Shown: positions 5,763-37,918, numbered from the stretch's first letter. The stretch: 64,000 nucleotides of DNA from Blastocatellia bacterium (GCA_038211695.1 JBBQVH010000010.1:2825-66824), one strand, 5' to 3'. Notes: generated by a model not told the origin, from the letters alone. Program-made: numbers and translations.

Positions 5763-6692
5763 TCAAGCAACGATGATGAAGGTATTCCTGCCGCCGACCA
5801 CGTCCGAAAAATCCTTGTTGTAACTGACGTCCACGCGGCGGAACTGTTTGATCACGTCGCCCATTTCGGCGGCAGTGATGAAACCGTCTTCGGTGTGGGC
5901 AATGGCCCATTGCTGAATGTGTTTGGCGCGCGCCAGGAAGTTGCTGACCATTTGCAGGTAATGTTCTTTTGAAACGACATCGTCGCCCAGCCTGCCGCGT
6001 TGCGCGGCGATCAACTGATCCCACGCTTCGCCTGTGCCGCGCACCCAGGTTTCGCGCCAACCGGCAACGCTCTGCCGCAATCCGGCCAACCCTTCGGGGC
6101 CTGGGAAGCGCACAAACATCAATTCCGCGCGCGCGCCACGAATGAAATCGTGCGCATCGCGATTGACGCTGTAATTCTCCTTGCCGTTATCCACCACCTG
6201 ACGCTGGTTGCGCCACAAGGCCAGAAAGGCTTCTGACAGGGGCCGCCGCAATTCCATGGTTTCGGGCGTAAAGGAGAAAGCGTAATCGCCCACGCCCAGC
6301 GCCAGCATAATCGCCAGCGCGCGGCGATGTTCGTTTTCGATCTGCTGGACATTCAGCCACAGATTGTCGAACCAAACGGCATCCATCTCGCTCATCATTG
6401 CCCCAAGCGCGGGATTATGCAGCCGCCGGTGCGGGACGTAGGCTTCGCCCAATGCCAGCGAGACATCTTCTTCGGTCAGCGCTTCGCCTGCGTTTTCGAC
6501 CAGCGCGCGCGACATCCACCACGCCCACTGGCACAGGTCATTGTCCAGTACCTGTTTGCCCCAGAATTTAAGGTACCAGCCCAGGTCGGGTTGGCCTGCA
6601 AATGGAATGGCAATTGAATTGAATTTCAGACGGCGCAGCACGCTCAGTTCAAAGCCCAGCCACCGCCGATTCGTTGTTGAATTAGTGAGCAT
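5763..6692 (-). CDS. Hypothetical protein (309 aa), no recognisable domain
   Basis: Long ORF with coding-like composition, between the kinase and the HD-GYP gene; no motif I can place. Confidence 0.4.
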
Positions 6693-6715
6693 AATGTTGG
6701 AGAAGTGAATCCTGG

Positions 6716-7831
6716 TTAGCTTGGAATTTTCGGCGCTGGTTCCTGTTGTTCATCGCGCGCTGAATCGTGATGGACGATTGCAGCACTGTGGGCGACGTCA
6801 GTCTGAGCAGGCGATTCATCATCAGAAGCTTGATGCATCAGAACATCGCCATAAGGAGCAGCCGCCAGCACTTCATGAGGCAGAGCGACAGGCGTTGGAA
6901 TTGCCTCCAATTCTTTTGCCACTGGCGGCACTGATGACGCCAGTGGCAAATCTTCCGGAACCTGAGCGATGTGCTCTTCAATTGGCGCTTTGGTTGGTTC
7001 CAGCGATTGATGTTCCGGGTCAACGGCATCGGCGGCATCGGCGGCCGTCTGCAAGTCCTGCCGTTCGACAGCGCCAAAATCAGTCAGCGTATCGGGAGTG
7101 TAGAGTGGCGATGGAATTTCGCCGTCAATCGCTGCCAGCGCGGGCGATTCTTCTACTGCATGAATAGATGGCGGTTCAAATGCGGGGGGAACGCTCCAGA
7201 CTTCAGCCTCGCGTTGTCTTCTTTCCGCGACGACAACGGCCAGCAACAGTTTGGCAATGTGCGGGTCGAGTTCAATGCCGGACAGATCAGCAATGACCTG
7301 TTCCGCCTCCGGCAATTCATACGCTTGCCGGTAAGGGCGCTGCGAAATCAACGCACAGTAACTATCAACCGCCCGCAGAATGCGCGCGCCGACGGGAATG
7401 GACGCGCCCGCCAAACCATCCGGGTATCCCTGCCCGTTCCACCATTCCTGGTGCCAGCGAATCAAAAGCTGCGTTTGCCGTGGCAGTTGAAGTTCCGCCG
7501 CGGACTGTTCGCCCAGAATTGGGTGCCGCCATAAATCCAGAGTCTCTTCCCAACTGAGCGCGTTCGGTTGTAACAAATAATTGCGCTTCAACCCGCGCTC
7601 GCCGATGTCGTGCGCCAAAGCAGCGAATTTCAGCGCGGTTAAATCCTGGCCATGCAGGCCCACCTGTCTGCCGATGGTTTCGGCCAATCGAGCAATCATG
7701 ACGGCGTGCGGTTCGGTGTATCCCTCTATGCGGTCGGTCTCCAGCGCCAGCTTCATCAGACGTTCGCCCAGCGGGCGTTCCGCGTCAGCGAAGATCAGTG
7801 GCGCCGAGGGTGCTTGTTGTGCTTGCATCAA
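6716..7831 (-). CDS. HD-GYP domain phosphodiesterase (c-di-GMP-type) with a long acidic, Pro/Ala-rich C-terminal tail
   Basis: HD motif LAHDIGE, and downstream [15 protein letters not shown] (the GYP signature). The C-terminal 170 aa or so is low-complexity (P/A/E/D-rich). Confidence 0.7.
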
Positions 7832-9472: not shown

Positions 9473-9901
9473 ATGAAATCATTTTATCTCCCGATCCTGA
9501 TGGCCATCGGCGGCGGCGTGCTCTATCACGTTTCGCAGAAATCTGTCCCCAAAGAAGTAAGTCCGTTCGCCGCCATCATCATTGCCTACGCGGTTGGCAT
9601 CGTGTTGTGCGCTGTGGCGCTAACGCTTGATTCCGGGGGGCGGTCATTCGCGGCCTCGGTCAAGGCAACCAATTGGGCAGTCATCTCGCTGGGCGTTGGC
9701 GCGGCGGTGATCGAAGTTAGTTTTCTGCTGGCGTATCGCGCCGGATGGAATATCAACTCGGCCTCAGTTGTCATGAGCATCTCGGTCGCGCTGCTGCTGG
9801 TCCCAATTGGCCTGCTGGCCTTCAAAGAGCATTTGTCGTCACGCGGCATCGCTGGCATTGGCTGCTGTCTCGTCGGCCTGTACCTGCTCTCGAAAAGATA
9901 A
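9473..9901 (+). CDS. Small DMT/EamA-like membrane protein (4 predicted TM helices)
   Basis: 142 aa, four hydrophobic helices, directly upstream of a full EamA transporter. Confidence 0.5.
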   Translation: MKSFYLPILMAIGGGVLYHVSQKSVPKEVSPFAAIIIAYAVGIVLCAVALTLDSGGRSFAASVKATNWAVISLGVGAAVIEVSFLLAYRAGWNINSASVVMSISVALLLVPIGLLAFKEHLSSRGIAGIGCCLVGLYLLSKR

Positions 9902-9964
9902 CCCGCGCGCGCGGGCGTCCCGCCCGCTGTGTAAAGCGCGAAGCATTCTTTTTCCTCTCACCAA

Positions 9965-10846
9965 ATGAATCAATATCTTGCCGTCTGGTTGCTGCTCTGC
10001 CTGATCTGGGGTTCGACGTGGATTTTCATCAAGCTGGGGCTGGACGATTGGCCGCCCTTTACGTTTGCCGCCCTGCGCTTTCTGTTGGCGGCAACGATCC
10101 TGTGGATGGTTGTTCTGTTCAGACGGACTCCATTGCCCCGCGCGCGTCGCGACTGGCTGATGATGGCGGGAGTGGGATGTATTTCGTTTGCCCTGAATTT
10201 CGGTTTGATCTTCTGGGGGGGAAATCGAATTCCTTCGGGGCTGACGGCGGTCTTGCAATCGGTGATTCCGGCATTTGGGCTGATCATTGCGCACCACTAT
10301 CTGCCGGGTGAGCGCCTCACAGTGGCCAAATTGATCGGCGTGGCAATCGGAATTGCCGGCGTAGCCGTGATTTTTTCCGGCCAGATGCAAGCCGCTGGCA
10401 GCGCGGCTTTGTGGGGTAGCGCGGCCATTGTGGGCAGCGCGCTCTGTGTGGCCTACAGCAACGTAGTGATCAAAGCCTACTGTGGGCACCTGGATACGTT
10501 CCTGATGGTCGCGGCACAAATGACATTTGGATTGATCCCGCTGTTTGCGCTCAGTTGGATGCTGGAAGGCGGGCCGTTCAAATTGCGCTGGACGATGAAT
10601 GCAACCGTCGCGCTGATCTATCTGGCCATCGTCGGTTCGGCCCTCGCGCTTTCGCTTTATTACTGGATGGTCAAAAAGATTGCCGTGACCAAAACCCTGC
10701 TGATTTCGCTGGTCACGCCAGTCGTTGCATTGCTGATTGGATGGCTGGCACGTGGCGAAGTGCTAACCTGGCGATTGGCGCTGGGCAGCGCAGCGATTCT
10801 GTCGGGCATTGGGATAATCGTCGTGCCGAAGCGTTCAGACACTTGA
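9965..10846 (+). CDS. EamA/RhaT family (DMT superfamily) transporter, 10 TM
   Basis: Two EamA-like halves; WGSTWIFIK and related repeats; highly hydrophobic throughout. Confidence 0.75.
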   Translation: MNQYLAVWLLLCLIWGSTWIFIKLGLDDWPPFTFAALRFLLAATILWMVVLFRRTPLPRARRDWLMMAGVGCISFALNFGLIFWGGNRIPSGLTAVLQSVIPAFGLIIAHHYLPGERLTVAKLIGVAIGIAGVAVIFSGQMQAAGSAALWGSAAIVGSALCVAYSNVVIKAYCGHLDTFLMVAAQMTFGLIPLFALSWMLEGGPFKLRWTMNATVALIYLAIVGSALALSLYYWMVKKIAVTKTLLISLVTPVVALLIGWLARGEVLTWRLALGSAAILSGIGIIVVPKRSDT

Positions 10847-16422: not shown

Positions 16423-16701
16423 CTTGCTACTCCTTATTCTCAGGCCGCAGTGATTTTGCTTTTCCCCGGCCCGTGAAACGCGGCTCATTTGGCCGCAAAC
16501 AACATTTTTTCAATAGGCGCGGAGTGTATTTCAGGCCAGATGGCAGTGTCAAAGTAGCGTCTCTAACCCACTGACAAGCTTTGGTGATGGCCGTCTTGTT
16601 TGGCAGTAACGCTGCTGAAACGTTAGACTGTGGCTTCTGGTTTAGGCAGTTTGCTCAAACCTCGAATGTTTTCGAACACTTCAGAACCCAAAGTAAAAAT
16701 T

Positions 16702-16935
16702 ATGTCAGTACGAGTCAAAGCAATATATGAACAAGGCGTGTTGCGCCCTGTCAAACCGCTGAATTTGCCCGAAGGCGAGCAGGTGGAGTTGAACCTAGTT
16801 ACACTCTCCGAGGCCGAAGCGACGCGGTTATCAAAAGCCGAGAGCGAGGCGAGAGACATTGAGATCATTAATCGGAATCTTGATGAACTAAACGCAGAAG
16901 CCTTGGATGCACTCAGGTATCAGGTAGAACTGTGA
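16702..16935 (+). CDS. Type II antitoxin, DUF104/AF2212-like family
   Basis: MSVRVKAIYEQGVLRPVKPLNLPEGEQVELNLV matches the small antitoxin family signature. The stop is 3 nt before the toxin start. Confidence 0.55.
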   Translation: MSVRVKAIYEQGVLRPVKPLNLPEGEQVELNLVTLSEAEATRLSKAESEARDIEIINRNLDELNAEALDALRYQVEL

Positions 16936-16938
16936 AAC

Positions 16939-17269
16939 GTGGGGAACTATTATTTGGTACCGGATCTGTCTGGCAGAGACCCTAAACGCAATCGTGCGTA
17001 CGTCATTGTCAGCCGCCATGGGTTGATTGAAACAGGTTTCTCCACGGTGATCTGCGCTCCGGTCTATTCGCATCATCATGGCTTAACAACCCAGGTGCGC
17101 GTAGGAATTGATGAGGGCTTGAAACACGATAGCAGCATTCACTGCGATGAATTGATGAGTCTGATCAGATCGCGTTTGACTCGTTACCTCGGCACACTTC
17201 CACCTGAAAAAATCAAAGAACTCAACCAGGCTCTGAAAGCAGCCTTGTCGCTAGATGAGCAAGCAGCAA

Positions 17270-17280
<11 letters not shown>
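16939..17280 (+). CDS. MazF/PemK family toxin (endoribonuclease)
   Basis: [31 protein letters not shown]...VRVG...[15 protein letters not shown] matches the PemK/MazF fold signature. GTG start. Its 3' end overlaps the rimO start. Confidence 0.65.
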
Positions 17281-18653
<1,373 letters not shown>

Positions 18654-18661
<8 letters not shown>

Positions 18662-19223
18662 AAGCAAGATTGAAGAGAGCCGGTCCAAGCGCGGTTCATC
18701 AATGAAGATCAAGGGGCCGATTGATCTGCTGGCTGTCTTCATTGCCACTGGCGGCGGCGCGGGGGTGATTCCGTTCGGCCCTGGCACGTGGGGATCGCTG
18801 GTCGGATTGCTGATGGCGTACGGACTGATCGCCGCTTTCAATCAGAATGTTGCGTTGCTGCAAAACGCCTTGATCATCGTCAGCTTGTTTTTGGCGCTGA
18901 TTGGAATTTGGGCCGGCACGCGGGCTGAGACTATTTTTGATCGCAAAGACGCCGGGCAGATCGTCATTGATGAAGTTTGCGGCCAAGTCATTGCCTTCGT
19001 TTTCATCGCCCCCTTTCTGCCAATTCTGGCCAAATTCGGCGGCCAGTGGCGCTGGTGGCTGATCCCCGGTTTTCTGCTCTTTCGTGCGTTCGATATTTTC
19101 AAACCTTATCCCATCAACCGGCTGCAATCGTTGACCGGCGGCGTAGGCGTGATGATGGATGACATTGTCGCGGGAATATACGCGGCGGTGCTGATGTCGC
19201 TGGCGCTGTGGTTGACAACCTAA
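18654..19223 (+). CDS. pgpA: Phosphatidylglycerophosphatase A
   Basis: GPGTWGSLVG...FDIFKPYPI...GGVGVMMDDIVAGIYA are PgpA signatures. Confidence 0.7.
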
Positions 19224-19262
19224 ACCCGCTCCCTACTGGTTGCGGTACTGACCTGAACTTTT

Positions 19263-20501
19263 ATGCTGAACGCTGAAATTATTGCCATCGGATCAGAGAT
19301 GCTGACGCCGTTTCGTGTGGACACTAATTCGCTGTGGCTGACCGAACGCCTGAATTCAATGGGCATTGACGTCAAGCTGAAGACCGTCGTCGGCGACGAC
19401 GAAGCGCGGTTGGAAGAAACCATCCGCGACGCGATGAAACGATCGGAGATTGTCATCGCCACTGGCGGGCTTGGCCCCACTGAAGACGACATCACACGCA
19501 AGATGTTCGCCCGCGTGTTGAAACGCCAGTTGATCCTGAACGATGAGATTCTGGAAAAGCTTCGCGCTCGATTTGCCAAACGAAACATGCCGATGCCCGA
19601 AATCAACGCCCGGCAAGCGCTGGTGATGAACGGCGCGGACATTCTGGCCAACCCGAACGGCACCGCGCCGGGAATGATGGTGCAGGAAGCCACATGCACG
19701 GTCGTGATGCTGCCCGGCCCGCCGCGCGAGATGAAGCCGATGTTTGACGCTTCGGTCGCGCCTGTACTCAAAAAACGCGTCGGCGACGTGCTGATCCTGC
19801 GCCGCAAACTGAGCATCTTCGGCCTGACCGAATCTCGCACAGACGAACTAGCCGCGCCCATCTACACCAGATACAAAAATCCTTCGACGACGATTCTGTT
19901 CAAAGAAGGCCAGATCGAACTGCATTTGACCGCGCAGGTGAAAAGCGAAGCCGAGGGCAACCGGCTGCTGGATGAACTCAGCGGTCAGTTGGAGGAAGCG
20001 CTGGGCGAATACGTCTATTCACGGCGCGAAAATGAAACGCTGGAACATGTCGTCGGCGAACTACTGCGCTGGCGCGGGTACAGTCTGGCAACGGCTGAAA
20101 GCTGCACCGGCGGGTTGCTGGCCGGACGCATCACCAACGTCGCTGGCAGTTCGGAATACTTTCTGGAAGGCGTCGTGACCTACTCAAACGAAGCCAAGAC
20201 GCGAATGCTGGGCGTGCCGGACGCAATGATCGAAGAACACGGCGCGGTCAGCGAACCGGTCGCCTGCGCAATGGCCGAAGGCGTTCGCGAACTTGCCGGT
20301 TCCACTTTCGGCATCGGCATCACCGGCATTGCCGGGCCAGGCGGCGGCAGCGAAGAGAAACCTGTCGGCCTGGTCTATATCGCACTGGCTGAAGATGGAA
20401 ACGTCACCCCGCGCAAACTGATCTTCCCCGGCGACCGGCAGTTCATTCGCACGCTGGCCGTCAATTCTGCGCTTGATCTGTTGCGGCGACGGATTAAATA
20501 A
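19263..20501 (+). CDS. cinA: Competence/damage-inducible protein CinA (MoCF-binding N-domain plus NMN deamidase C-domain)
   Basis: N-terminus AEIIAIGSEMLTPFRVDTNS...IATGGLGPTEDDIT; C-terminal PncC-like LATAESCTGGLLA. Confidence 0.85.
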   Translation: MLNAEIIAIGSEMLTPFRVDTNSLWLTERLNSMGIDVKLKTVVGDDEARLEETIRDAMKRSEIVIATGGLGPTEDDITRKMFARVLKRQLILNDEILEKLRARFAKRNMPMPEINARQALVMNGADILANPNGTAPGMMVQEATCTVVMLPGPPREMKPMFDASVAPVLKKRVGDVLILRRKLSIFGLTESRTDELAAPIYTRYKNPSTTILFKEGQIELHLTAQVKSEAEGNRLLDELSGQLEEALGEYVYSRRENETLEHVVGELLRWRGYSLATAESCTGGLLAGRITNVAGSSEYFLEGVVTYSNEAKTRMLGVPDAMIEEHGAVSEPVACAMAEGVRELAGSTFGIGITGIAGPGGGSEEKPVGLVYIALAEDGNVTPRKLIFPGDRQFIRTLAVNSALDLLRRRIK

Positions 20502-20534: not shown

Positions 20535-20846
20535 ATGAAAGCAACAACGTCAAAATCCAAAGTCAGAATCGTGATCGCCAACACGCCAAAGAAGACAGCA
20601 GCCCGTCGCCCGAAGCGGAATGTGCCGCCCATTACAATCAATCCTGAGCGGCTGGGAGGAACTCCGACAATTGCCGGTACGCGGCTGCCGGTCGTGACGT
20701 TGATTGATTATCTCAATGACGAGGAAGCCATCAACAATTTCAAACTTGATTTTCCGGGCACGACTGACGAGCAAATTCAAGCCGTCCTTGAGCGTGTTCG
20801 GGAAGCGCTGGAAGAAGGTTGGTTGGCGGAACGAATTGATTATTGA
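20535..20846 (+). CDS. DUF433 domain protein (putative antitoxin)
   Basis: RLGGTPTIAGTRLPVVTLIDYL is the DUF433 core. A 4-nt overlap with the downstream gene couples the two translationally. Confidence 0.6.
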   Translation: MKATTSKSKVRIVIANTPKKTAARRPKRNVPPITINPERLGGTPTIAGTRLPVVTLIDYLNDEEAINNFKLDFPGTTDEQIQAVLERVREALEEGWLAERIDY

Positions 20847-21223
20847 TGCGCTTACTTTTCGACAAAGGGGTGCCGGTCAGACTGCGTCATTCGCTGTCAG
20901 CCCATAGCATAACCACGGTGCAGGCTCTGGACTGGGAAGAACTCAAGAACGGCGCCCTCCTGACAATCGCGCAAACTCAGTTTGATGTGTTGATCACGAC
21001 AGATTCGAACATGAAATATCAGCAGCGCCTGGACGCTTACGACATTGTCCTGGTTGTCTTGCGCGCCTTCAACACCAAGCTCAAATCTTACCTTCCGTTA
21101 GTTCCCGAAATAGAAGCAGTCCTAAACCAGATTCAGCCGGGCAATGTGGTCTACATCTACGCCGATCAAAAACTGGCCTTGAAGGATCAGCGCAAAGGCA
21201 CCAAGAGGAGAAGTCCCGAATGA
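20843..21223 (+). CDS. DUF5615 family PIN-like protein (putative toxin partner of DUF433)
   Basis: MRLLFDKGVP...DVLITTDSNM is the DUF5615 pattern, with the conserved DUF433-DUF5615 gene order. Confidence 0.55.
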   Translation: MMRLLFDKGVPVRLRHSLSAHSITTVQALDWEELKNGALLTIAQTQFDVLITTDSNMKYQQRLDAYDIVLVVLRAFNTKLKSYLPLVPEIEAVLNQIQPGNVVYIYADQKLALKDQRKGTKRRSPE

Positions 21224-24533: not shown

Positions 24534-24644
24534 TTCGATCAATGCCCGGCAAGCTGCCAGCTTGCCGGTGATTCCAGGATGTGTTCAACCGAGACCCCGA
24601 CAAGCTGGCAGCTTGCCGGACATTTTTTTTGAGGAGCCACGAGA

Positions 24645-26135
24645 ATGGAAGTTAAAGCGGATGCAAGGAAGTTTTACGAGATCGAATGCGACGCGCTGGT
24701 CGTTGGCGTGTACGAAGGCGAAGGCCACAAAGAAGGCACCTTGGCCGAACTGGATAAGCGCATTGGTGGCGTGCTGGCTTCGCTGGTGGAAAATGGAGAG
24801 TTCACCGGCAAGGCGGGCGAATCGGCTTACATTCACAACACCGGCGAGATGAAGGCGCGACGGCTGCTGCTGCTGGGCGCGGGCAAACAGGCCGATTTCA
24901 CCGCCGACAATGTCCGCCGGATGGCAGGCACGGCAACGCGCACATTGCGTAGCAAGAAGCTGCGCAGCTTCGCTTTCCTGCGCCGTTCCCAATTGGCTAT
25001 CGGCGAAAGTGCGCAGGCCGCCACCGAAGGCGCGCTGCTATCACTGTTCGACCCTGACAAATATCACACCAGCGACAAGACAGAGAATCATCTGGAAGCC
25101 ATGATCTTGGCAGCATCAAGTCTGGACGGGGAGGGTGACATCGAAGAGTTAAAGCGTGGCGTTGAACGTGGCCGCATTATCGCCGAAGCCACGAACTTCG
25201 GGCGCGAGATTGTTAATGAACCGTCCAACGTCATGACGCCAACCGCCCTGGCACAGAAGGCCGAAGAGCTGGCCAAGGATTACGGACTGGAACTGGACGT
25301 GCTGGACGAAGCGCAAATGAAAGAGCTTGGGATGGGTTCGCTGCTCGGCGTGGCGCAAGGTTCCGCGGAACCGGCCAAGATGATCGTGCTGCGCTACACG
25401 CCGAAAGTTGATTCCGACGAAACCATCGCCATCGTCGGCAAAGGCGTGACCTTCGACACAGGCGGCATTTCGATCAAACCCGCCGACGGGATGGAGAAAA
25501 TGAAGTACGACATGGCGGGCGGCGCAACGACCCTTTCCGCCATGCGCGCCATCGCGCAGCTCAAGCCCACGGTCAACGTCCTGGGTATCGTCCCAGCGGT
25601 CGAAAACATGCCCGGCGGACGTGCGCAACGCCCGGGCGATGTAGTTCGCGCGATGACCGGCAAAACCATCGAAGTCATCAACACCGACGCCGAAGGCCGG
25701 TTGATTCTGGCCGACGCAGTGGCCTATGCACGACAGCTTGGCGCGACCAAAATCGTTGATCTGGCAACGCTGACCGGCGCGGTTTCGATTGCGTTGGGTG
25801 ACGTATACGTCGCGATTCTGGGCAACAATCAGGATTGGATAAACGAAGTGATCGCGGCGGGCAAAAAGTCCGGCGAGAAGCTTTGGCAACTGCCTTTGGA
25901 CAAAGAGTACCGCGAACAAATCAAGAGCGAGATCGCCGACATCAAAAACGTCGGCGGGCGCAAAGCCGGCACCATCACCGGCGCGTACTTCATCCGCGAA
26001 TTCGTCGAAGACACACCGTGGGCGCATCTGGACATTGCAGGTACAGCCTGGAACGACAGCAACAAACCGTATTTGTCGGTCGGCCCCACGGGCGTTTGCG
26101 TGCGGACGCTGGTCAATCTGGTGTGTCGTGACTGA
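24645..26135 (+). CDS. pepA: Leucyl aminopeptidase (M17)
   Basis: NTDAEGRLILADA signature, VGKGVTFDTGGISIKP, MKYDMAGGA. Confidence 0.9.
   Translation: MEVKADARKFYEIECDALVVGVYEGEGHKEGTLAELDKRIGGVLASLVENGEFTGKAGESAYIHNTGEMKARRLLLLGAGKQADFTADNVRRMAGTATRTLRSKKLRSFAFLRRSQLAIGESAQAATEGALLSLFDPDKYHTSDKTENHLEAMILAASSLDGEGDIEELKRGVERGRIIAEATNFGREIVNEPSNVMTPTALAQKAEELAKDYGLELDVLDEAQMKELGMGSLLGVAQGSAEPAKMIVLRYTPKVDSDETIAIVGKGVTFDTGGISIKPADGMEKMKYDMAGGATTLSAMRAIAQLKPTVNVLGIVPAVENMPGGRAQRPGDVVRAMTGKTIEVINTDAEGRLILADAVAYARQLGATKIVDLATLTGAVSIALGDVYVAILGNNQDWINEVIAAGKKSGEKLWQLPLDKEYREQIKSEIADIKNVGGRKAGTITGAYFIREFVEDTPWAHLDIAGTAWNDSNKPYLSVGPTGVCVRTLVNLVCRD
26093..26135. repeat. Left copy of an imperfect direct repeat (the pepA 3' end) bounding the island
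   Basis: ggcgtttgcgtgcGGACGCTGGTCAATCTGGTgtgtcgtgactga encodes GVCVRTLVNLVCRD*. A 19-nt identical core recurs at 31056-31074. Confidence 0.7.
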
Positions 26136-26162
26136 GGAAGAGAAGGCAAATTCGGTAGAGCG

Positions 26163-26648
26163 ATGTCGGTAATGGACATTTACAGCAAGGAAAAAAGAAG
26201 TCAGATAATGTCCGCAGTCCGTTCTTCGGGAACGAAGCCGGAACTCATCGTCAGAAAGGCATTACATTCTCTAGGATTCCGCTTTCGCCTTCATAGCAAG
26301 GCGCTTCCCGGGAAACCGAATATTGTTCTGCCTAAACATAAAGCAGTTGTTTTCGTCCATGGATGTTTTTGGCATCACCACAAGGGATGTGGGAAGTCCA
26401 AGCTTCCCACATCGAATGCCGAATTTTGGCAGACGAAAATATTCGAGAATGTTCGGCGAGATAAGAAAACCATATCGCATCTCAGGAGACTTGGCTGGCG
26501 GGTTTTAATTGTTTGGGAATGTGAAACCAAAGGCGGCATATTCATCAAAAAGCTATACCGTTTCTTCAAGCTGACATGCCCATCGCCCGCTGCAATGTCA
26601 GTCATCAGCCGGGGAAATAAGAGGTCACGCAATGTCGCAACAAGCTAG
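26163..26648 (+). CDS. vsr: Very-short-patch repair endonuclease Vsr
   Basis: RSQIMSAVRSSGTKPELIVRKALHSLGFRFRLH...GKPNIVLPKHKAVVFVHGCFWHHH...LGWRVLIVWECE lines up with canonical Vsr along its whole length. Confidence 0.85.
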   Translation: MSVMDIYSKEKRSQIMSAVRSSGTKPELIVRKALHSLGFRFRLHSKALPGKPNIVLPKHKAVVFVHGCFWHHHKGCGKSKLPTSNAEFWQTKIFENVRRDKKTISHLRRLGWRVLIVWECETKGGIFIKKLYRFFKLTCPSPAAMSVISRGNKRSRNVATS

Positions 26649-28812
26649 GCAATCAAGCGAATCGGAGAAAATCCCGTTCCGCATGCACCCGAGAGTATTC
26701 GAGTCACTGGGTGCGGACTTAGTTACAAGTGACGCTGTGGCAATCATTGAGTTGGTGAAGAACTCTTACGATGCCCACGCAACGAGAGTGGACGTGCGCT
26801 TGAAGAAGAGTACCGAAGATAACGAGTTAATATTGGAGATTGAAGATAACGGCTCCGGTATGAACCATGAGGTAATTGAAAATGCCTGGGCAGTCGTCGC
26901 CACTCCCTACCGCGTCAAGCAAACCAACAGCAAGCAAGGACGAAAAGGGCGGAGAGCTTCCGGCGAAAAAGGGCTTGGAAGGCTATCCGCAGCGCGTTTG
27001 GGCAACAACTTGGAGATGTTTACCAAGCCCGCGAATGAAGATTGTTGGCAAGTAAAAGTTGATTGGGGCATTCTGGCGGCCTCGGATGATTTGAGTTCCT
27101 GCGAAATCCAACTTCAAAAATACAATGGCAATCCTCTTGCCGGGCGCACCGGCACGCTGATACGAATTTGTGAGTTAAAGAGTAATTGGGATGACGAAAA
27201 GATCGCTGAGCTTAAGGATTTGCTATCTAGATTGATTCCCCCCTTTGCTCGGGTTGAAGACTTTAAGATTTGGCTGACTCTTCCAGGTGAAAAAGAGGCA
27301 GAGTCTGAAGAAATTGAACCAGCAAAGTTTCTTTCCAAGCCGCCATACCTGCTGAAAGGGAGTGTAGATAAGTCAGGCAGAGCCAACTGCACCTACACTT
27401 ATGCTCCGCTACAAGGAGCGAGTCGCACGGTTGAGATTGTCCGTGAATTATGGGCTAGCAATTTCGTTGCGGCGGACAACGATCAAGACGACGGTCAAGA
27501 AGTGAACCAAGTGCCCGAGTGTGGGCCATTCAAGTTTGAGATAAGAGTTTGGGATCTCGATAAAGACGCTGAGACGTTTAAGGAAATCTCGCAAGAATTC
27601 AATTTGAATCTTGCGATGCTACGCAGAACCATAAAAAACTATCAGGGACTGTCACTCTATCGCGATGAAATACTGGTTTTGCCAAAATCGGAATCGGCAA
27701 GGGACTGGTTGGGACTTGATCTGCGCCGTGTGAGCAAAACCGGCAAGAGGGTAGGCACCAGTCAACTCATTGGCTACTTGGCAGCTACAGCCGAAAACAA
27801 TCCGAGTCTCAAAGATACAAGTGATCGCGAAAGGCTGGTTGATAATCAGGCCGCTAGGGATTTCAAAAAGCTCTTGTGGGAAATTGCCGGGCTATTGGAG
27901 AACGAGAGAGAGAAGGATCGGCTGGAAATTCGTAAACAGCGATCTTTGAAGGATTTGTTTACTGCACTTTCAACCAAGCCTCTCATTGAGCGGATGTCGG
28001 CTGCCGTGGCACAGGGAGTCGAAGCTAAAAAACTGCTCCCGCTGGTGGAAGAACATGGTGTTGAGGTTGAAAAAGCTATCGGTGAAATTGAGCAAACACT
28101 TATTTATTACAATCAACTCGCCAATCTTGGTGCTTTAGCAGCGGTGTTAGTGCATGAGGTCGGAAATAGGGTAGGCATTATAGGACGATTAACGCGGCGG
28201 ATTCGTAAGCTCATTGAAAGGAAAGATGCTTCCGCTTTGACAGTCGAAGAAGATTTGGGGCGTGCTGAACAGAGCGAGCGTGCCCTTAATCGGTTAGTTG
28301 ACCATCTCGCTCCCCTTGCAAGCCGCACGTTTCGTACCCGGCGACGTGACTCCAACCTCGAAGAGACAATTCTGAATTGCGTGGGAATGCGTGAAGAAGA
28401 GATCAAAGCTAAAAAAATCACCGTCGAGTATAAATCCGATTTGCCTTATGTTGTGGCGATTGACCCGGGCGAGCTTGACGGTATCATCCTCAACTTGCTC
28501 GACAATGCTATTCATTGGCTTTCAACTGTCAAAGATCGCCCGCGCCGCATAGAGTTTCGAGCCTTGCCAAGTAACAAAACATTGCGGGTTAAGATTGAGG
28601 TGCATGACTCTGGCCCTGGCGTAGATAAAGATGATGGAGAACGGATTTTTTTACCAGGAGTCTCCCGTAAGACAGGGGGGCTTGGCATGGGGCTTTTCGT
28701 TGTTGGAGAACTGGTAGCACAGCACAATGGAGCGTTTCATTTGATTACCACGCCGGCACTAGGTGGGGCAAGCTTTGGCTTCGATCTGCCACTTTCCGAG
28801 AGGGCAAAATGA
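26632..28812 (+). CDS. Fusion protein: N-terminal MutL/MORC/HSP90-type GHKL ATPase (HATPase_c_3-like), a central unknown region, and a C-terminal histidine-kinase core (H-box plus HATPase_c)
   Basis: N-terminus: AIIELVKNSYDAHA (N-box), IEDNGSGM (G1), GEKGLGRLS (G2). C-terminus: VLVHEVGNRVGII (H-box-like), ILNLLDNAIHWL (N), VHDSGPGVDKD (G1), GGLGMGLFVVGELV (G2). It overlaps the vsr stop and the next gene start. Confidence 0.7.
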   Translation: MSQQARQSSESEKIPFRMHPRVFESLGADLVTSDAVAIIELVKNSYDAHATRVDVRLKKSTEDNELILEIEDNGSGMNHEVIENAWAVVATPYRVKQTNSKQGRKGRRASGEKGLGRLSAARLGNNLEMFTKPANEDCWQVKVDWGILAASDDLSSCEIQLQKYNGNPLAGRTGTLIRICELKSNWDDEKIAELKDLLSRLIPPFARVEDFKIWLTLPGEKEAESEEIEPAKFLSKPPYLLKGSVDKSGRANCTYTYAPLQGASRTVEIVRELWASNFVAADNDQDDGQEVNQVPECGPFKFEIRVWDLDKDAETFKEISQEFNLNLAMLRRTIKNYQGLSLYRDEILVLPKSESARDWLGLDLRRVSKTGKRVGTSQLIGYLAATAENNPSLKDTSDRERLVDNQAARDFKKLLWEIAGLLENEREKDRLEIRKQRSLKDLFTALSTKPLIERMSAAVAQGVEAKKLLPLVEEHGVEVEKAIGEIEQTLIYYNQLANLGALAAVLVHEVGNRVGIIGRLTRRIRKLIERKDASALTVEEDLGRAEQSERALNRLVDHLAPLASRTFRTRRRDSNLEETILNCVGMREEEIKAKKITVEYKSDLPYVVAIDPGELDGIILNLLDNAIHWLSTVKDRPRRIEFRALPSNKTLRVKIEVHDSGPGVDKDDGERIFLPGVSRKTGGLGMGLFVVGELVAQHNGAFHLITTPALGGASFGFDLPLSERAK

Positions 28813-29963
28813 GTGAAAAAGGTGATGACAAAGTTTGGGTACTGATTGTTGAGGATACGCGTGATAGAGCAGTTACTCTTCGGCAAGAAATCATTGAAAG
28901 GTTGGGGAATGACGTTGAGATTGTCATCGAAGAAGATCACGAGAAAGCCTCGCAGGTCTTACTTCGCCCGCATCCTTACGATGTTGTGATCCTTGACTTG
29001 TTTCGCGGCAATCCGACAAACGGGGATAAGGCGGGCCAAGTTCTTTGGCAGGAAATATTGAATGTAAAGTTCGTCCCCGTGCTTGTTCATACTGCTGGTG
29101 CTTGTGACCTTGAACCGCCTTTTCCCGAAAAACACCCGATTCTTCGCTGCTTCCCGAAAACTTCCGATAGTGATGTGAAGATAGCTGAACACCTGTTGTC
29201 AATTCGCAAGTACGTTATGGAGTTAAGAGAAGTGCAGCAGGAGATCAATGCTGCATTCAAAAGCGTTCTCCTGGTCACGTCGGCAACCATCTGGAAAGAG
29301 GAAGCTGATGAGGAACAGCGTGCTCAATTGCTTCTACGAAGCGCGCGAAGACGAATGGCGGCGACAATGGATTCTGCCACTCAGGTCAGTCAGGAAAAGC
29401 TTCTGTTTTGGGAGCAGTATATTTACCCGCCTATGGAGCCAAGCTTATTGATGGGAGATTTGCTGCGCGCCAAAGACAAAGACAAGCATGATCCGACAGC
29501 TTACCGGCTTGTCTTGACGCCTTCTTGCGATTTGGCTTCCGGAGTCGGCCGCCGCACTATCTGCGACGTTTTAGTAGCAAAGTGTCAGAGTAGAGAGGCT
29601 TATGTGAAGGCGGTTGGCGTGACGATCGGAGATTCGATGACTGACAAAAATAAGGAGCGACTGGCAAGGTCGTTCAACGATGCGCATTACGGCAGCCATG
29701 TCTTTTTGCCGGAGTACAAGTCTGTCCTTCCAACGATGGCCGCTTGCTTGCGTGACTTGGAATTGATTCCGATCAACGAGATTGCATCACAAGATGAATC
29801 GAATGGAAAGTTCACCAGAGTTGTTTCGATTGATAGTCCCTTCCGAGAACAAATAGCGTGGGCTTATCTTCAAATTGCCGCAAGACCGGGAATGCCCGAA
29901 CGTGATTCGGAGCGATGCATTCAAGATAATTTTGCGCCGTCAGAGCCATCCGTAATCTCATAA
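28809..29963 (+). CDS. Receiver (REC)-like domain protein with an unrecognised C-terminal domain of about 270 aa (candidate effector)
   Basis: N-terminus VLIVEDTRD...YDVVILDLF(Asp)...VPVLVHTAG fits the CheY-like receiver layout. The C-terminal two-thirds has no motif I recognise. ATGA overlap with the upstream kinase-like gene. Confidence 0.6.
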   Translation: MSEKGDDKVWVLIVEDTRDRAVTLRQEIIERLGNDVEIVIEEDHEKASQVLLRPHPYDVVILDLFRGNPTNGDKAGQVLWQEILNVKFVPVLVHTAGACDLEPPFPEKHPILRCFPKTSDSDVKIAEHLLSIRKYVMELREVQQEINAAFKSVLLVTSATIWKEEADEEQRAQLLLRSARRRMAATMDSATQVSQEKLLFWEQYIYPPMEPSLLMGDLLRAKDKDKHDPTAYRLVLTPSCDLASGVGRRTICDVLVAKCQSREAYVKAVGVTIGDSMTDKNKERLARSFNDAHYGSHVFLPEYKSVLPTMAACLRDLELIPINEIASQDESNGKFTRVVSIDSPFREQIAWAYLQIAARPGMPERDSERCIQDNFAPSEPSVIS

Positions 29964-29983
29964 TTTTTGAAGGTGATTAAACG

Positions 29984-31040
29984 ATGATTGCGATTGATTT
30001 CTTTTGCGGGGCTGATGGGCCAACCCGAGGGTTGCTGAACGCCGGAATTGAAGTCCGATTTGGAATTGATTATGACGCAGTATGCCGTGAGACTTACGAG
30101 ACAAACAATCAGCCTGCACACTTCCTTAAAGCGGATGTGAAAACGCTTGAAGTCGCGGATATTCGAAGAGAGATTGGTGAGATTGATTCTGACAATTTGT
30201 TACTCGCCGCGTGCGCTCCATGCCAACCTTTCTCACAACTCAACCGTGGAGGAATCAATGATGATGAGGCGACATTGCTCGGGCGGTTCGGGCGATTTGT
30301 TCAAGACTTGCAACCCCGCTACGTGTTTGCGGAGAACGTTCCGGGCCTCAGCCGTGTTCCCGGCCAGAGCACGCATAAGAGATTCCATCGCATGCTGAAA
30401 AAACTCGAATACGGTGTCTGGGAGGGCGTGCTTGATGCGAAGTCGTATGGTGTCCCGCAAACCCGCCGCCGATTCATCATGATTGCGATTCGCGGAATTG
30501 AGCCGACCGCTCCGCCACACACACACGGGCGGGGAGCGGGTTTACTTCCTTTTGAAACGGTGGGGAATGCAATCAGAGATCAGCGTCACTATCCGCCAAT
30601 CCAAGCCGGAGAAACGCATCCGGCAGTCCCTAATCACAGGGCAGCCATTCTCTCCGCCGTTAACCTCGAGCGAATTCGTCATATCTCCTTGCAATGGAGG
30701 GGAACGAACTGCTTGGCCTCAGCACCTATGGCTGAAATGCTATTCGAACGGGCATACCGGCCACACTGACATCTATGGCCGAATGAAATGGGAAGCACCC
30801 TCGCCGACGCTTACTTGCAAATGCATCAGTCTTTCTAATGGCAGGTATGGTCATCCCGAGCAAGATCGTGCCATTTCATTACGCGAAGCTGCGAAACTGC
30901 AAAGTTTCGATGACGATTATGTCTTCCAGGCCGACGGACTTATGCAAGCGGCAAAACAGATCGGGAATGCCGTACCAGTAAAATTTGCCGAAGCGATTGG
31001 GTTGCATATTCGAAGGCTTGCCGGAGAACTCAGCCATTAG
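29984..31040 (+). pseudogene. dcm: Dcm-type DNA (cytosine-5) methyltransferase, interrupted by a single frameshift near 30680-30690
   Basis: Frame 1 carries motifs I (FCGADG), IV (PCQPFS), VI (ENV) and VIII (QTRRRF), and runs to ...NLERIRHIS. Frame 2 continues SPCNGG...YGRMKWEAPSPT...EAAKLQSFDDDYVF...GNAVPV (motifs IX/X). The ORF track shows two overlapping ORFs, 29984..30769 and 30483..31040. Confidence 0.75.
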
Positions 31041-31042
31041 CC

Positions 31043-31084
31043 AGCGTCTTTGTGTGGACGCTGGTCAATCTGGTCTGCGGCTGA
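31043..31084. repeat. Right copy of the direct repeat, a vestigial pepA 3' end
   Basis: gtctttgtgtGGACGCTGGTCAATCTGGTctgcggctga translates as VFVWTLVNLVCG*, a degenerate copy of the PepA C-terminus, immediately after the dcm stop. Confidence 0.7.
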
Positions 31085-31098
31085 CAGCCATCTTATTT

Positions 31099-31665
31099 TC
31101 ACGGTTCCAAATTCAGCCGCCGATCGTCATACAACCGTATGTGGTCGGCGGCTTGCCATTGGGCCAATTGGACGATCTGGCCAGTGTGATAGCTGAAGTG
31201 CTCAACCACATGAAAAACCGCGTCGAACACCGTTTGAGCGTAACCTTGCGGCACGCATTCACGTTGCATGGGCGCGTCAGATTGTGCGGCTGCCAATTCA
31301 TCCTCCAATCCCGCCAACACGGCATCTACTTCATCCAGCGTTCTCGTCAGCAAGATAATCAACTCGTCTTTGCCAATCCCTTCGCGTGCGGCGAATTCGC
31401 TGGCGCGTTGGCGCGTGTCCGCCGCGCCGCCGATGCCGGCAATGATCCACTGGCGCACGTTGCCCACCAGATGCAGAATCAGATTGCCGATGCTGTTGCT
31501 GGCCTCGTTTGGGTGCCACCAAACTTGTTCGTCGTCTAATTCAGCCAGCGCGGCGCTGATCTTGATGAAATAATCTTCGCGCAATCGGAAGCGCGCCTGC
31601 CGCAGAAAGGCAAGTCCGGCAGGCAGTGGCGCGGCAGGTGGTTCAAGTAAAAATGATCTTTTCAT
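31099..31665 (-). CDS. DinB/YfiT-like (DUF1572) family protein
   Basis: EDYF...L..LDDEQVWWHPNEASNSIGNLILHLVGN...HVVEHFSYHTGQI matches the DinB_2 four-helix-bundle pattern. The N-terminus overlaps the tail of the adjacent transposase ORF, so the start is uncertain. Confidence 0.6.
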   Translation of the reverse strand: MKRSFLLEPPAAPLPAGLAFLRQARFRLREDYFIKISAALAELDDEQVWWHPNEASNSIGNLILHLVGNVRQWIIAGIGGAADTRQRASEFAAREGIGKDELIILLTRTLDEVDAVLAGLEDELAAAQSDAPMQRECVPQGYAQTVFDAVFHVVEHFSYHTGQIVQLAQWQAADHIRLYDDRRLNLEP

Positions 31666-32579
31666 TCGGCAATATCTCCTTCCTTAAACTCTCGAATGCT
31701 GATTCGCAAACCTTCTTTCTGAGCGGGATCGGACGTCTTACCCTGTTACGGGCAAAATGCCAACAGCCAAGAGTGCCTTGCCTCGTAAGTGCGAACAGAG
31801 TTTCAATGCCCCATCTTTCCTTGTATTCCCGGTGCGGCTCCGGCGAGTGTTCCGCCGAAACCGGAATCAGGTACTCGCCCGATCCGAGGTAACAACCGCT
31901 TAGATACAGTTCCATCCCCCACATCTGACGCGCTTCGGGCAGGACTAACATCTGATTGACTCTGGTTGAGGTGAATAATCGCCAGGCGTGAACCAGCTTC
32001 CCGCGACTGTTGCAAACCGGCGTATCCTTCTTCAAGCGCATCCGGAATTTGATCCGATGCTGACGCAGAAAACGGAACCATCGTTTGCCGACAAACTCGC
32101 GATCGCCCAATAAACATTGGATATTTTGCGCGCCGAAGAGGTCAATGAAAATCTCGATCAGCGTCTCTCGCTCGATCGTGTCGGAGTTGCCGGTCTTGGG
32201 CAGCGGCAACCAAACGACTGGAAACCCGATCCCGCGATAAACGATTGAGAGCATCAAAATGTTGACGTCAACGGCACCGACTTTCCAGGCGCGTCCGATC
32301 CAGCGCCAGCGTGTAGGGGCCTTCGTCGCCGAGCAGTTTGACGACAAAGTGGGACAGTTCGGCATAAGGCAATTCGAAGTTGTGGAGGAACCGTTGGAGC
32401 CGTTTGTAGTTCGACTCTTCTTTGGCGTTGCCGGAAAAGGCCGTCGCGAGAATCGAGAGGTTGACGGTCCGGACCGCGTAAAGCGCCAACAGAAAGCGCG
32501 TCACAAATTTGATGCGAGCTTTGTTCCAAGGTAAATTCTCAAGCAACGTTTGCTCAAGTGAGCGAATGTCGAGTGCCAT
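31643..32579 (-). mobile_element. IS4/IS5-superfamily DDE transposase gene, split by a frameshift (ORFs 32268..32579 and 31643..32365). The IS ends were not identified.
   Basis: N-terminal ORF LLENLPWNKARIKFVTRFLLALYAVRTVNLSILATAF...YKRLQRFL; C-terminal ORF with DREF...KERWGIETLFALTRQ (DDE_Tnp_1-like). The two overlap by about 100 nt in different frames. Confidence 0.6.
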
Positions 32580-32798: not shown

Positions 32799-33919
32799 AC
32801 TGATGTTACGCAGTGGCCAATTGTGACTTCAACTTGACAAGCTCGGCGTAGGCGGATTTTACCGCCGACAGATAGAGCTTGGATTTCAAGGCGAAGTGGT
32901 TGAGCTTGGTCTTTATTTTGAGCTTCTCCAGTTTGATATAAGCGCACAAACTGGCAAATAGATGATTGCGTTGACTCGTCTCGGTGCGCGTCGGCGACTT
33001 CTCCGGCGAGGCATTCTGCTTGAGCGATTTGTGGTAGACCTCGATGCCCCATCGTTTTTGAAAGAGCTTCGCGATACGGTCAGCGTTGAGCGTCAAGTCG
33101 CTCGTCACCAGGTAGCGCACGCCCACCGAGCCGTCTTCGTTTTTGAAGATCTGCTTGAGCAAGAGGACTGCAAAAGGCACGCCCTCGAGCCAAACCTGGC
33201 GGGTTGTGTCTGCTGGCAAATCGAGTGTACTGACTGCCACGTAGGGACCGCGTTGATTGTCGGTTTCGCCCAAGGCCACCTTGCGGTTCTCCTTGAGCGG
33301 CATGATGAAGTCTTTCTTGAGATCGAGTTTGATGAACTTCATATTGTCGGCGGACGCATACCAGAGGTCATTGAGCACGTATTGGAAGAGCACCTGATTA
33401 TGCACCGCCACGCGCAGCAACATCCGGTAACGCTGGTTTTTGGTGATCGGAGAGCGACGCGCGGGTTTTGCCGGTCTTGGCGTCAACATATTCTTCTGTC
33501 TTCTCGACCGGATCGAAGGCAATCGGCAAAGACACTTCGCCGACGTTATAGAAAGCCGTCAAGAACTCGATTCCTTTGACGTGCCTGCTCAGAGAATGGC
33601 TCCAGTGCCAGCAGATAATGTCATTCTGGTCGGTGTAGAGCTTCTTGCTCAGAGAGTCATCAATGCTGATGACCCCGTCCGGACGTTCGATCTGACGGAC
33701 AAGCGGTTTGCTGACGCGCCACAAATCGGCACTGGTCTTGGGAGCATCGGCAAGCAGGCGGGTCACCTGATCGTGGCTGACCTGACCGTCAAGCATCCGC
33801 GCCATCCCGGTTGCAGTCGCTGGCCCGAAGCTGCTGATCAAGAAGTCAGTGTAGAGGTCGAACAGTTCATCATTCATCTGTCAAGTTTACTCTTGGCAGC
33901 CCGACTGCGTAACATCAGG
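32799..33919 (-). mobile_element. Insertion sequence (about 1.12 kb, IS5/IS4-superfamily) with 15-bp perfect terminal inverted repeats. The transposase is split by a frameshift (33398..33877 and 32806..33522).
   Basis: IR-L aaCTGATGTTACGCAGTgg (32799-32817) against IR-R ccgACTGCGTAACATCAGg (33901-33919). C-terminal ORF contains FQKRWGIEVYHKSLKQ (a DDE transposase signature). The two ORFs overlap out of frame. Confidence 0.7.
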
Positions 33920-37450: not shown

Positions 37451-37918
37451 GTGATCGTCTTAGCCTTGGCAGGCGGTGTACTGAGCATTGATGGATCGTT
37501 TCTGGTTGTTTTCATATCCATCTTTTTGCTGATCTTCATTTTAAACCGCACGTTATTCAAACCCATCAATCAGGTGTTGGACGAACGCGAGCATCTGGGC
37601 GCGGGGCGTATGTCCGAAGCCAGGCAGTTGCTGGCGAAATACGAAGAGCGGCTGACGCGCTACGAACAGCAGTTGCAGGCGGCGCGCGGCGAAGCGTACC
37701 AGTATATGGAAGCGCAGCGTCGTGAAGCGCAAGGAGACCGGCTGCAGGTTTTGGCGCAGGTCAAGGCAGAAACCGCTTTGCAAGTGGCCGCCGCGCGCGA
37801 TGAGATTGCCCAGCAAACCAACGCGGCCAAACAGAGCCTGGAAGGCGAAGCGCGAGCGATGGCTTCGGTCATCTCGTCTCAGATTTTGCATCGCCCGGTT
37901 AGCGTCACAGAGAGCTGA
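37451..37918 (+). CDS. atpF': F0F1 ATP synthase subunit b' (b-like)
   Basis: N-terminal TM helix followed by a long charged helix ([24 protein letters not shown]...). GTG start. Precedes the canonical b subunit. Confidence 0.65.

Follow-up and report, generated by a model that had tools for sequence, protein, structure and literature searches.

How does a set of defence-type genes come to sit directly against the 3′ end of a housekeeping gene, and what becomes of the terminus of that gene? The question is raised by a 64,000-nucleotide stretch of DNA from a Blastocatellia bacterium (GCA_038211695.1 JBBQVH010000010.1:2825-66824), hereafter called the window, with all positions counted from its first base. 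Within it pepA, which encodes an M17 leucyl aminopeptidase of 496 aa (24645-26135, plus strand; Pfam Peptidase_M17, E 1e-126, and Peptidase_M17_N), is followed by four co-directional open reading frames (ORFs): vsr, a sensor kinase gene, a response-regulator-like gene and dcm. A preliminary description of the locus proposed that these genes form an island bounded by two copies of the sequence encoding the PepA C terminus, and that they carry the classic footprint of site-specific integration. In the analysis presented here the sequence feature proved real and the proposed insertion topology was confirmed, whereas a classic integrase footprint was not demonstrated. The locus offers a clean natural example, from the understudied phylum Acidobacteriota, of a defence-type methylase cassette entering a chromosome without a visible mobility gene.

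Two copies of the pepA terminus enclose a foreign segment

A repeat search of the window joined positions 26092-26125, at the end of pepA, to positions 31044-31077, just beyond dcm, in a direct repeat of 34 nt without gaps (29/34 identical). The copies are about 85% identical and share an exact core of 19 nt, GGACGCTGGTCAATCTGGT, at 26104-26122 and 31056-31074. This core is found nowhere else in the 64 kb, even when up to two mismatches are allowed, and none of 100 shuffles gave any match to it. With gaps admitted, the similarity extends to both TGA stops, at 26135 and 31084, and the distal copy then spans 31041-31084 (44 nt), beginning right after the TAG of dcm. The local alignment score of the repeat was 21.5; shuffled queries averaged 10.7 (sd 1.0, maximum 14.5) and none of 300 attained 21.5, while only 1 of 359 real 60-mers equalled the score when compared with its own downstream 10 kb. 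Alignment and shuffles alike thus bear out the first claim made for the locus, that the pepA 3′ end recurs after the dcm stop around a 19-nt core. The coordinates first given for the copies pointed to the right sites and were off by 2-3 nt, without consequence.

A match arising by chance, or a chimeric assembly joined at a short shared sequence, is a very improbable source of this pattern. The window does come from a metagenome-derived contig, and assemblers can join at short repeats. Against this, the repeat score lies far beyond chance, the junctions fall at gene ends, and the pepA reading frame is intact. In addition, a further contig (L086) covers 28932-31821 at 100% identity, the left junction being covered by the window assembly alone, and a contig from a different lineage (L099, described below) has the same order of dcm, pepA-like vestige and DinB-like gene.

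Comparison of the two copies with pepA from related genomes shows a hybrid pattern in each. The proximal, attL-like copy (26091-26135, plus strand) consists of a native left arm, the core and a non-native right arm, GTGTGTCGTGACTGA; the distal, attR-like copy (31041-31084, plus strand) consists of a diverged left arm, CCAGCGTCTTTGTGT, the core and a native right arm, CTGCGGCTGA, which encodes LVCG*. The left arm of the proximal copy and the right arm of the distal copy agree with pepA of relatives; the latter is found again at the end of pepA in L096, L097 and L002, the first two of which carry the empty sites described below. The other two arms, GTG TGT CGT GAC TGA on the right of the proximal copy and AGC GTC TTT GTG T on the left of the distal one, are unlike the pepA of relatives, so that a match of both copies to the native target over their whole length fails in these two arms. 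All nine differences between the copies (9/9, among 40 comparable bases) lie outside the 19-nt core; a run of this kind has P = 0.011 under uniform decay.

The hybrid structure is also visible in the encoded protein. The working pepA ends CGT GAC TGA, giving ...LVCRD*, and its last two codons and stop are non-native: PepA proteins of close relatives end in LVCG*, LVCD* or LVCS*, and the distal vestige reads ...TLVNLVCG*. The in-frame stop contributed by the insert sits one codon past the native stop position.

The 4.9 kb between the repeat copies is compositionally foreign. Positions 26136-31042 have a GC content of 0.493, compared with 0.555 and 0.563 in the flanks, and the lowest value in any equal-sized segment outside the island is 0.539. 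Likewise, GC at third codon positions (GC3) is 0.47-0.53 in the island genes and 0.672 +/- 0.037 in 32 flanking genes (z -3.9 to -5.3). The greater AT-richness noted by eye in the preliminary description is therefore borne out by windowed GC and by the GC3 z-scores, and the possibility raised there that base composition might be indistinguishable from the flanks does not apply.

Related contigs carry the uninterrupted site

A PepA query recovered 80 loci of related species from GTDB, all from Blastocatellia-like metagenome-assembled genomes (MAGs) with PepA identity of at most 87%. In none of the 80 was the cassette found after pepA, and in none did the DinB-like gene lie beside pepA. An exact-pattern scan of JGI metagenomes for a native-type junction gave no match, and exact-protein look-ups returned no record for PepA and only L086 for the DinB-like protein. 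The informative contigs (L096, L097 and L099) came instead from homologues of that DinB-like protein, the product of a DinB/DUF1572-family gene (31099-31665, minus strand; Pfam DUF1572, DinB_2, MST) that forms the right chromosomal flank of the island and is the native convergent neighbour of pepA.

In L096 and L097, both metagenomic, pepA converges directly on the adjoining DinB-like gene, with spacers of 17 and 15 nt, respectively, and no cassette in between. Their pepA genes are 90.5% (L096) and 89.3% (L097) identical to that of the window at the nucleotide level, and their DinB-like proteins are about 80-83% identical to that of the window. Both PepA proteins end ...GVCVRTLVNLVCG, that is, ...VRTLVNLVCG, and the repeat is present in a single copy. 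The left part of the proximal copy, the core, the right part of the distal copy and the DNA downstream of it are together colinear with these empty sites. Because the empty sites end in LVCG*, as does the distal vestige and unlike the working LVCRD*, we conclude from these alignments that the cassette is an insertion into the last codons of pepA, which supplies the present terminus of the gene and has displaced the native one 4.95 kb downstream, where it persists as an untranslated vestige of 44 nt. Two earlier expectations, an empty site in relatives and a replacement terminus brought by the insert with the native terminus left as a vestige, are both borne out by L096 and L097.

A second occupied pepA/DinB site, from another lineage, is found in L099 (positions 1-1065 of ENA ERZ27315166, reverse-complemented). 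The contig begins within a dcm gene that is 83% identical to that of the window at the nucleotide level and carries a premature stop of its own (SLR*AAKL). After dcm come a pepA-like vestige of about 90 nt ending GVCIRTLVNLVCG (LVCG), a 15-nt spacer and the DinB-like gene, whose product is 84% identical to that of the window. The 44-nt vestige of the window resembles the L099 vestige minus about 46 nt, and in both contigs the junction reads dcm TAG followed by CC. The target-derived repeat exceeds 30 bp both in the window (34-44 nt) and in L099 (about 90 nt), and in each case it aligns with the 3′ end of pepA in L096 and L097. Synonymous variants tie the L099 vestige to pepA of L096, its nearest lineage by the DinB-like gene, with which it has CGA ACC TTG in common; the vestige of the window likewise has CGG/TGG ACG CTG in common with the window's own pepA. 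A relative bearing the four genes between pepA and the DinB-like gene with no repeat, which would have spoken against insertion, was not among the contigs recovered; the occupied site that was recovered, in L099, has the pepA-like vestige.

Occupied and empty lineages are not separated by relatedness at the DinB-like gene, where nucleotide identity is 0.864 between L096 and L099, 0.847 between the window and L099 and 0.831 between the window and L096, values that come from a single gene of 567 nt. The island would have been either lost by recombination between the repeats, restoring the LVCG* end, or gained more than once. One explanation along these lines, which we regard as unlikely, is a single old insertion after which the whole pepA-cassette-dinB allele moved between lineages by homologous recombination in pepA on one side and the DinB-like gene on the other, with the empty sites of L096 and L097 arising in part secondarily, through recombination of the direct repeats. 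The unsorted identities speak for it, as do the shared TAG-CC junction, the closeness of the window and L099 cassettes to each other (0.83, against at most 0.765 for other cassettes) and the independent inactivation of dcm in these two lineages. The 80 related species without a cassette at pepA speak against it, as does the dependence of the tree on one short gene; moreover, such spread would account for the distribution of the island and not for the origin of its repeats, and is complementary to the other models.

Three further contigs from the searches were set aside or stand apart. In L055, a Ca. Acidoferrum MAG, an apparent pepA-end repeat downstream of pepA was rejected: the sequences are REP-like repeats around a RAYT-type transposase gene and are unrelated to the pepA coding sequence. 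The locus itself (6575-7200) holds a 180-aa ORF after pepA that by eye has the look of an IS200/RAYT-type tyrosine transposase and has palindromic REP-like direct repeats of 41 nt on either side. The match to the pepA end in L078 is 25 nt long, and two kinase genes lie in between. The DinB-like homologue in L100 lies in an unrelated context and was discarded.

The cassette at other loci

The closest homologues of the kinase (68-79% identical at the protein level) lie in the same vsr-kinase-regulator-dcm unit, and the corresponding DNA is 70-81% identical where aligned. In five contigs (L081, L083, L090, L093 and L098) the cassette follows an aldo-keto-reductase gene and in a sixth, L091, it follows a BNR-repeat gene, so that three chromosomal contexts are occupied when that of the window is included. 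All four genes were called in the window, L081, L091 and L098. In L083, L090 and L093 the kinase, regulator and dcm were called and the vsr region (at about 9520-10000) aligns at the DNA level with no vsr gene called. Kinase, regulator and dcm also occur together on the conjugative plasmids pREB1 of Acaryochloris and pCCDM224L of Campylobacter. When metagenomes were scanned with the kinase, the only locus to come up was once more that of the L083 type.

At five aligned loci, DNA similarity to the window begins at 26160-26173, a few bases at most from the start of vsr, and ends at about 31000-31011, in the dcm C-terminal region, and the cassette is AT-richer than its flanks in five of five other loci. 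No flanking repeat above chance (score about 10) surrounds the cassette at these five loci, and no integrase was detected in the six other cassette contigs. Because these six copies lack both the repeat and a pepA-like segment after dcm, a dedicated attachment site is not a general property of the cassette.

The copies differ among themselves in several respects. The kinase of L093 (10001-11746) is truncated to 581 aa, and L081 has a second dcm together with an HNH endonuclease gene (18306-19867), 4 kb from the cassette. The genes of the cassette also look mosaic, with the dcm of the window nearest to that of L081 (dN 0.077) and its regulator nearer to those of L090 and L091 (dN 0.17-0.18) than to that of L081 (0.25); this pattern suggests recombination among cassettes.

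How the insertion may have arisen

We favour, at somewhat better than even probability, a reciprocal crossover of the Campbell type at a pepA-like site. Ancestrally pepA ended ...LVCG* and converged on the DinB-like gene, about 15 nt away. A circular or plasmid-borne cassette carrying an adjacent segment similar to the pepA 3′ end may then have recombined with the chromosomal pepA end, with the crossover falling in or near the 19-nt core. Such an exchange would leave a native left arm, the core and a foreign right arm at the proximal site, and a foreign left arm, the core and a native right arm at the distal site. Candidate enzymes are an integrase that acted in trans or has since been lost, or host homologous recombination acting on short homology. 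The crossover is favoured because the arms of the two copies show this hybrid pattern and because the differences between them avoid the core. The in-frame stop contributed by the insert is a further point on its side.

Several observations weigh against a crossover of this kind. The vestige in L099 is longer than that of the window, at about 90 nt, and each vestige shares its synonymous variants with the pepA of its own or its nearest lineage. Such resemblance within a lineage is also expected from target duplication or from gene conversion between the copies, and under conversion the perfect core would need no crossover site. Furthermore, with arms of just 10-15 nt, the hybrid pattern is based on few positions. 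The six other cassette contigs have neither a flanking repeat nor a pepA-like segment after dcm. Finally, no recombinase was found in the island ORFs or in the larger ORFs screened between 21.9 and 38.5 kb, where the only candidates were IS4 DDE transposase fragments. Profile searches of the island ORFs thus uphold the early remark that the island contains no integrase. The stronger statement, that the locus is a classic footprint of site-specific integration, does not survive the missing recombinase in or near the island, the other cassette copies without repeats and the vestige of about 90 nt in L099.

The length and the lineage-specific variants of the L099 vestige find a ready place in a different account, long target duplication, to which we assign a lower but real probability. 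Here the cassette would have entered between the Cys and Gly codons and duplicated 40-90 nt of upstream target without a mobility gene or an attP-like site; the copies would have been identical at first, the distal copy would have decayed and, in the window, lost about 46 nt, and the perfect core would be due to chance or to later gene conversion between the copies. The locus has the published features of such events (an insert under 20 kb, a repeat of more than 30 bp, no mobility gene and alignment of the repeat to a single empty site; PMC2853133), and vestiges of about 90 nt in L099 and 44 nt in the window fit a duplication that is "long and variable". The vestige variants shared with pepA of the same lineage or closest relative also agree with it. 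Additionally, the 3′ part of dcm is 83% and the DinB-like gene 85% identical between the window and L099, so the event may be old enough for neutral decay of 15-20%. Uniform decay, however, does not readily spare the central 19 nt (P = 0.011), nor leave the left part of the L099 vestige far more diverged than the right, with indels. Duplication would also require an in-frame stop to occur by chance two codons into the insert, for which we estimate a probability of about 0.13, and the cassette has no canonical restriction endonuclease gene. We have down-weighted, and not rejected, target duplication with subsequent uniform decay, and it stays a serious rival of the Campbell-type crossover.

A more far-reaching proposal concerns the cassette itself, which might be a mobile element of about 5 kb without an integrase. 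It would carry a mimic of the pepA 3′ end in the junction of about 76 nt, and insert repeatedly and site-specifically into pepA, and its cargo would be a defence of a new kind, with a methylation-aware two-component relay controlling a MazF/CcdB-fold toxin. Insertion would then proceed through host recombination or through its own proteins, the Vsr nickase and the topoisomerase-like GHKL domain being candidates. We consider this doubtful, and leave it open because the occupied sites are scattered among empty ones across near-equidistant lineages and because the window and L099 have the same dcm-vestige junction.

Genes of the cassette

The gene content first read from the window (vsr, a GHKL-kinase fusion, a receiver-domain effector and dcm) stands as given, except that dcm is split and a pseudogene. 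The first gene, vsr (26163-26648, plus strand), encodes a very-short-patch T:G mismatch endonuclease (Pfam Vsr, E 1.9e-33; TIGR00632, 151.9 bits against a cut-off of 97.85). Its ORF is intact, and alignment of 5′ ends suggests a possible alternative start at the ATG at 26172. It is separated from the pepA stop by a 27-nt leader (26136-26162, plus strand), in which nothing before about 26158 corresponds to the empty sites or to any of the other cassette copies; the similarity to other cassettes sets in at 26160-26173. A scan for promoters and terminators found none at either island junction.

The second gene (26632-28812, plus strand) encodes a soluble sensor kinase of 726 aa with HATPase_c_3 at residues 35-164 and HATPase_c at residues 611-722. 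The N-terminal domain is a GHKL domain of the paraMORC type, and the C-terminal part is a histidine-kinase core with an H-box that by eye reads LVHEVGN. In NCBIfam searches residues 489-724 match kinases of the ZraS/AtoS type (E 1e-22), and the BbrUII/HgiDII restriction enzyme family gave a match below its cut-off at residues 20-200 (E 2.5e-21); the REase_II models of PADLOC weakly match the same N-terminal region. Full-length homologues number more than 1,300, across phyla.

The third gene (28809-29963, plus strand) encodes a response-regulator-like effector of 384 aa with an N-terminal receiver, a helical linker and a C-terminal domain of the MazF/CcdB/Kid fold. D16 and D63 of the receiver are invariant and K117 is near-invariant. 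The protein of the window has no Pfam match of its own, and searches for PemK_toxin and CcdB gave none at E up to 1, while 31 of 54 homologues match Response_reg (PF00072). An AlphaFold model built on the 54 homologues reached a pLDDT of 90.9. For the C-terminal domain (approximately residues 186-384, window 29364-29960), all 27 Foldseek matches at E <=0.001 were toxins of the MazF type, with probability 1.0 (27/27). On this predicted structure, the domain has the SH3-like barrel toxin fold of the MazF/CcdB superfamily. A PD-(D/E)xK nuclease, suggested by eye as the output domain, was dropped after the fold search.

The fourth gene, dcm (29984-31040, plus strand), belongs to the C5 cytosine DNA methyltransferases; two overlapping ORFs each match DNA_methylase. 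The gene is split by one extra base near 30683 (CATATCTCC vs CATA-CCCC), and a tblastn search with the intact Dcm of L081 places the frame switch at 30682/30684. The AdoMet motif I reads FCGADGP, compared with FCGAGGL in five other cassettes. L086, a separately assembled Logan contig, has the same split at 100% identity. Because the extra base splits the ORF and motif I is altered, the dcm of the window is, by its sequence, a pseudogene. The dN/dS between the dcm genes of the window and L081 is 0.074, a value that shows long-term purifying selection only, as dS between cassettes is saturated; on the strength of this ratio, the loss of dcm appears recent relative to the divergence of the cassettes. 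Inactivation has occurred independently in the window and L099 lineages. The kinase and regulator ORFs of the window are still full length; either, then, the cell tolerates the loss of methylation, or changes that are not visible have silenced the effector. Since dcm was recently inactivated, the module of the window is probably decaying. To call the island an immobilised remnant, as was done at the outset, is reasonable in this sense, although the basis is now the dead dcm and no longer the missing integrase.

Surroundings of the locus

Gene order in the window agrees with that of the 13 closest species (L001-L013, L027) as far as the 3′ end of pepA, and nothing beyond it is shared. The pepA stop at 26135 is the point of the break in all 13, with the genes for GpsA, SmpB and an RraB-like protein colinear upstream. 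Between the RraB-like gene and pepA (24541-24624) lies a 28-nt inverted repeat (93% complementary), also present as a 29-nt direct repeat, which overlaps a terminator-like hairpin at 24605-24619.

Directly past the DinB-like gene are two fragments of an IS4-family DDE transposase (31643-32365 and 32806-33522, both minus strand; NF033591, E 1e-30, and Pfam DDE_Tnp_1). L086 stops at 31821, within the first of them. Beyond the fragments, ORFs without a family match extend to an ATP-synthase B gene at 37722. Further upstream of pepA, a low-GC pair (16630-17280, GC 0.47-0.49) encoding an AF2212-like protein and a PemK/MazF-like toxin lies among genes of higher GC and is probably an inserted type II toxin-antitoxin module; a DUF433 and DUF5615 gene pair with a lower GC of 0.51 (20535-21223) is probably another toxin-antitoxin-like module.

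Comparison with known systems

Two known styles of insertion offer a comparison for the island. Furuta et al. (2010) described restriction-modification (R-M) units of less than 20 kb, without a mobility gene and with target-derived repeats of more than 30 bp, 46-47-bp repeats among the examples (PMC2853133). The authors noted two possible origins for these cases, long target duplication and site-specific integration (PMC2853133). The island is similar in being a 4.9-kb insert of methylase-linked genes with divergent GC and no mobility gene, and in having direct repeats of more than 30 bp that align to a single-copy empty site in relatives. It differs in that its repeats are 85% identical and hybrid around a perfect core, that the proximal copy lacks the native right end and that a protein-coding gene has its 3′ end rebuilt by the insert. 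Furthermore, a canonical restriction endonuclease is missing and the methylase is dead: the island's homologues of R-M genes are a modification pseudogene, a sub-threshold GHKL match to BbrUII/HgiDII and the MazF-fold effector.

The second style is that of integrative islands and prophages. These elements target the 3′ ends of genes (tRNA, tmRNA and some protein-coding genes) and carry a replacement terminus in attP. The island resembles them in its flanking direct repeats, which are derived from the target and arranged in the manner of attL and attR, in a target gene rebuilt by element sequence with the native end at the far junction, in its foreign composition and in the empty sites of relatives. 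Unlike them, it has no integrase, excisionase or element backbone, the whole consisting of four genes and about 76 nt, and other copies of the cassette have no att-like repeat. The style of insertion is thus one already known, and the well-resolved occupied and empty alleles provide concrete sequences for the study of integration and of repeat-mediated loss.

The cargo, too, has relatives. Bellieny-Rabelo, Pretorius and Moleleki (2021) reported loci resembling two-component systems, built on HEF_HK together with Response_reg_2, that are linked to C5-methylases, Vsr and paraMORC ATPases (PMC8011034). Kinases of that class are soluble and have an N-terminal HATPase_c_3, a DHp-like H-box and a C-terminal HATPase_c, with a receiver protein encoded adjacently; the authors suggested that the class is tied to R-M systems through regulation and derives from paraMORC ATPases (PMC8011034). 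The window has the same kinase architecture beside a receiver protein, a C5 methylase and Vsr. It differs in the gene order, vsr-HK-RR-dcm, in regulators that match the canonical Response_reg family and in the MazF/CcdB-fold output domain, which does not appear in PMC8011034 and was not found described in the literature searched. From its profile matches, the module is best placed as a sister branch of this already described architecture and not as a member of the class itself.

As to function, we propose an R-M-like or abortive-infection type of defence, in the form of a two-component module linked to methylation. Dcm would methylate cytosine and so mark the DNA of the cell itself, while Vsr would repair the T:G mismatches that result from methylation and limit their mutational cost. 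The paraMORC-type GHKL domain may act as a sensor for a methylation-linked state of DNA or nucleotides. The kinase would then phosphorylate the receiver, switching the toxin-like MazF/CcdB-fold effector on or off, and the effector might arrest the cell or degrade nucleic acid. Two results count against this proposal: none of five family kinases matches HEF_HK (PF19191) even at E up to 10, and none of 54 regulators matches Response_reg_2 (PF19192). Searches against PADLOC-DB v2 returned no named anti-phage system, with matches to Vsr, MTase_II/DruM and weak REase_II models only, and none for the regulator.

Individual parts of the module likewise have counterparts. The N-terminal GHKL part of the BbrUII/HgiDII Type II enzymes (NF050001) is matched by kinase residues 20-200; the match scores 75.9 bits against a cut-off of 550 and takes in only the N-terminal 185 of 659 profile positions, and the rest of the kinase is a histidine-kinase core rather than a restriction-enzyme body. 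The effector domain differs from the MazF, Kid and CcdB toxins of type II toxin-antitoxin systems in its identity of 10-15%, in giving no Pfam PemK match, and in being fused to a receiver without a paired antitoxin, and an RNase or gyrase-poison activity is putative. This fusion of a receiver to a MazF/CcdB fold offers a first mechanistic hypothesis for a kinase/regulator/Dcm/Vsr module that is widespread and has so far only been catalogued. The proposed logic of the module resembles that of two-component defence systems such as Detocs. Neither the mode of insertion nor the lead on the cargo overturns current understanding, and the mode of insertion and the architecture of the cassette both belong to known kinds.

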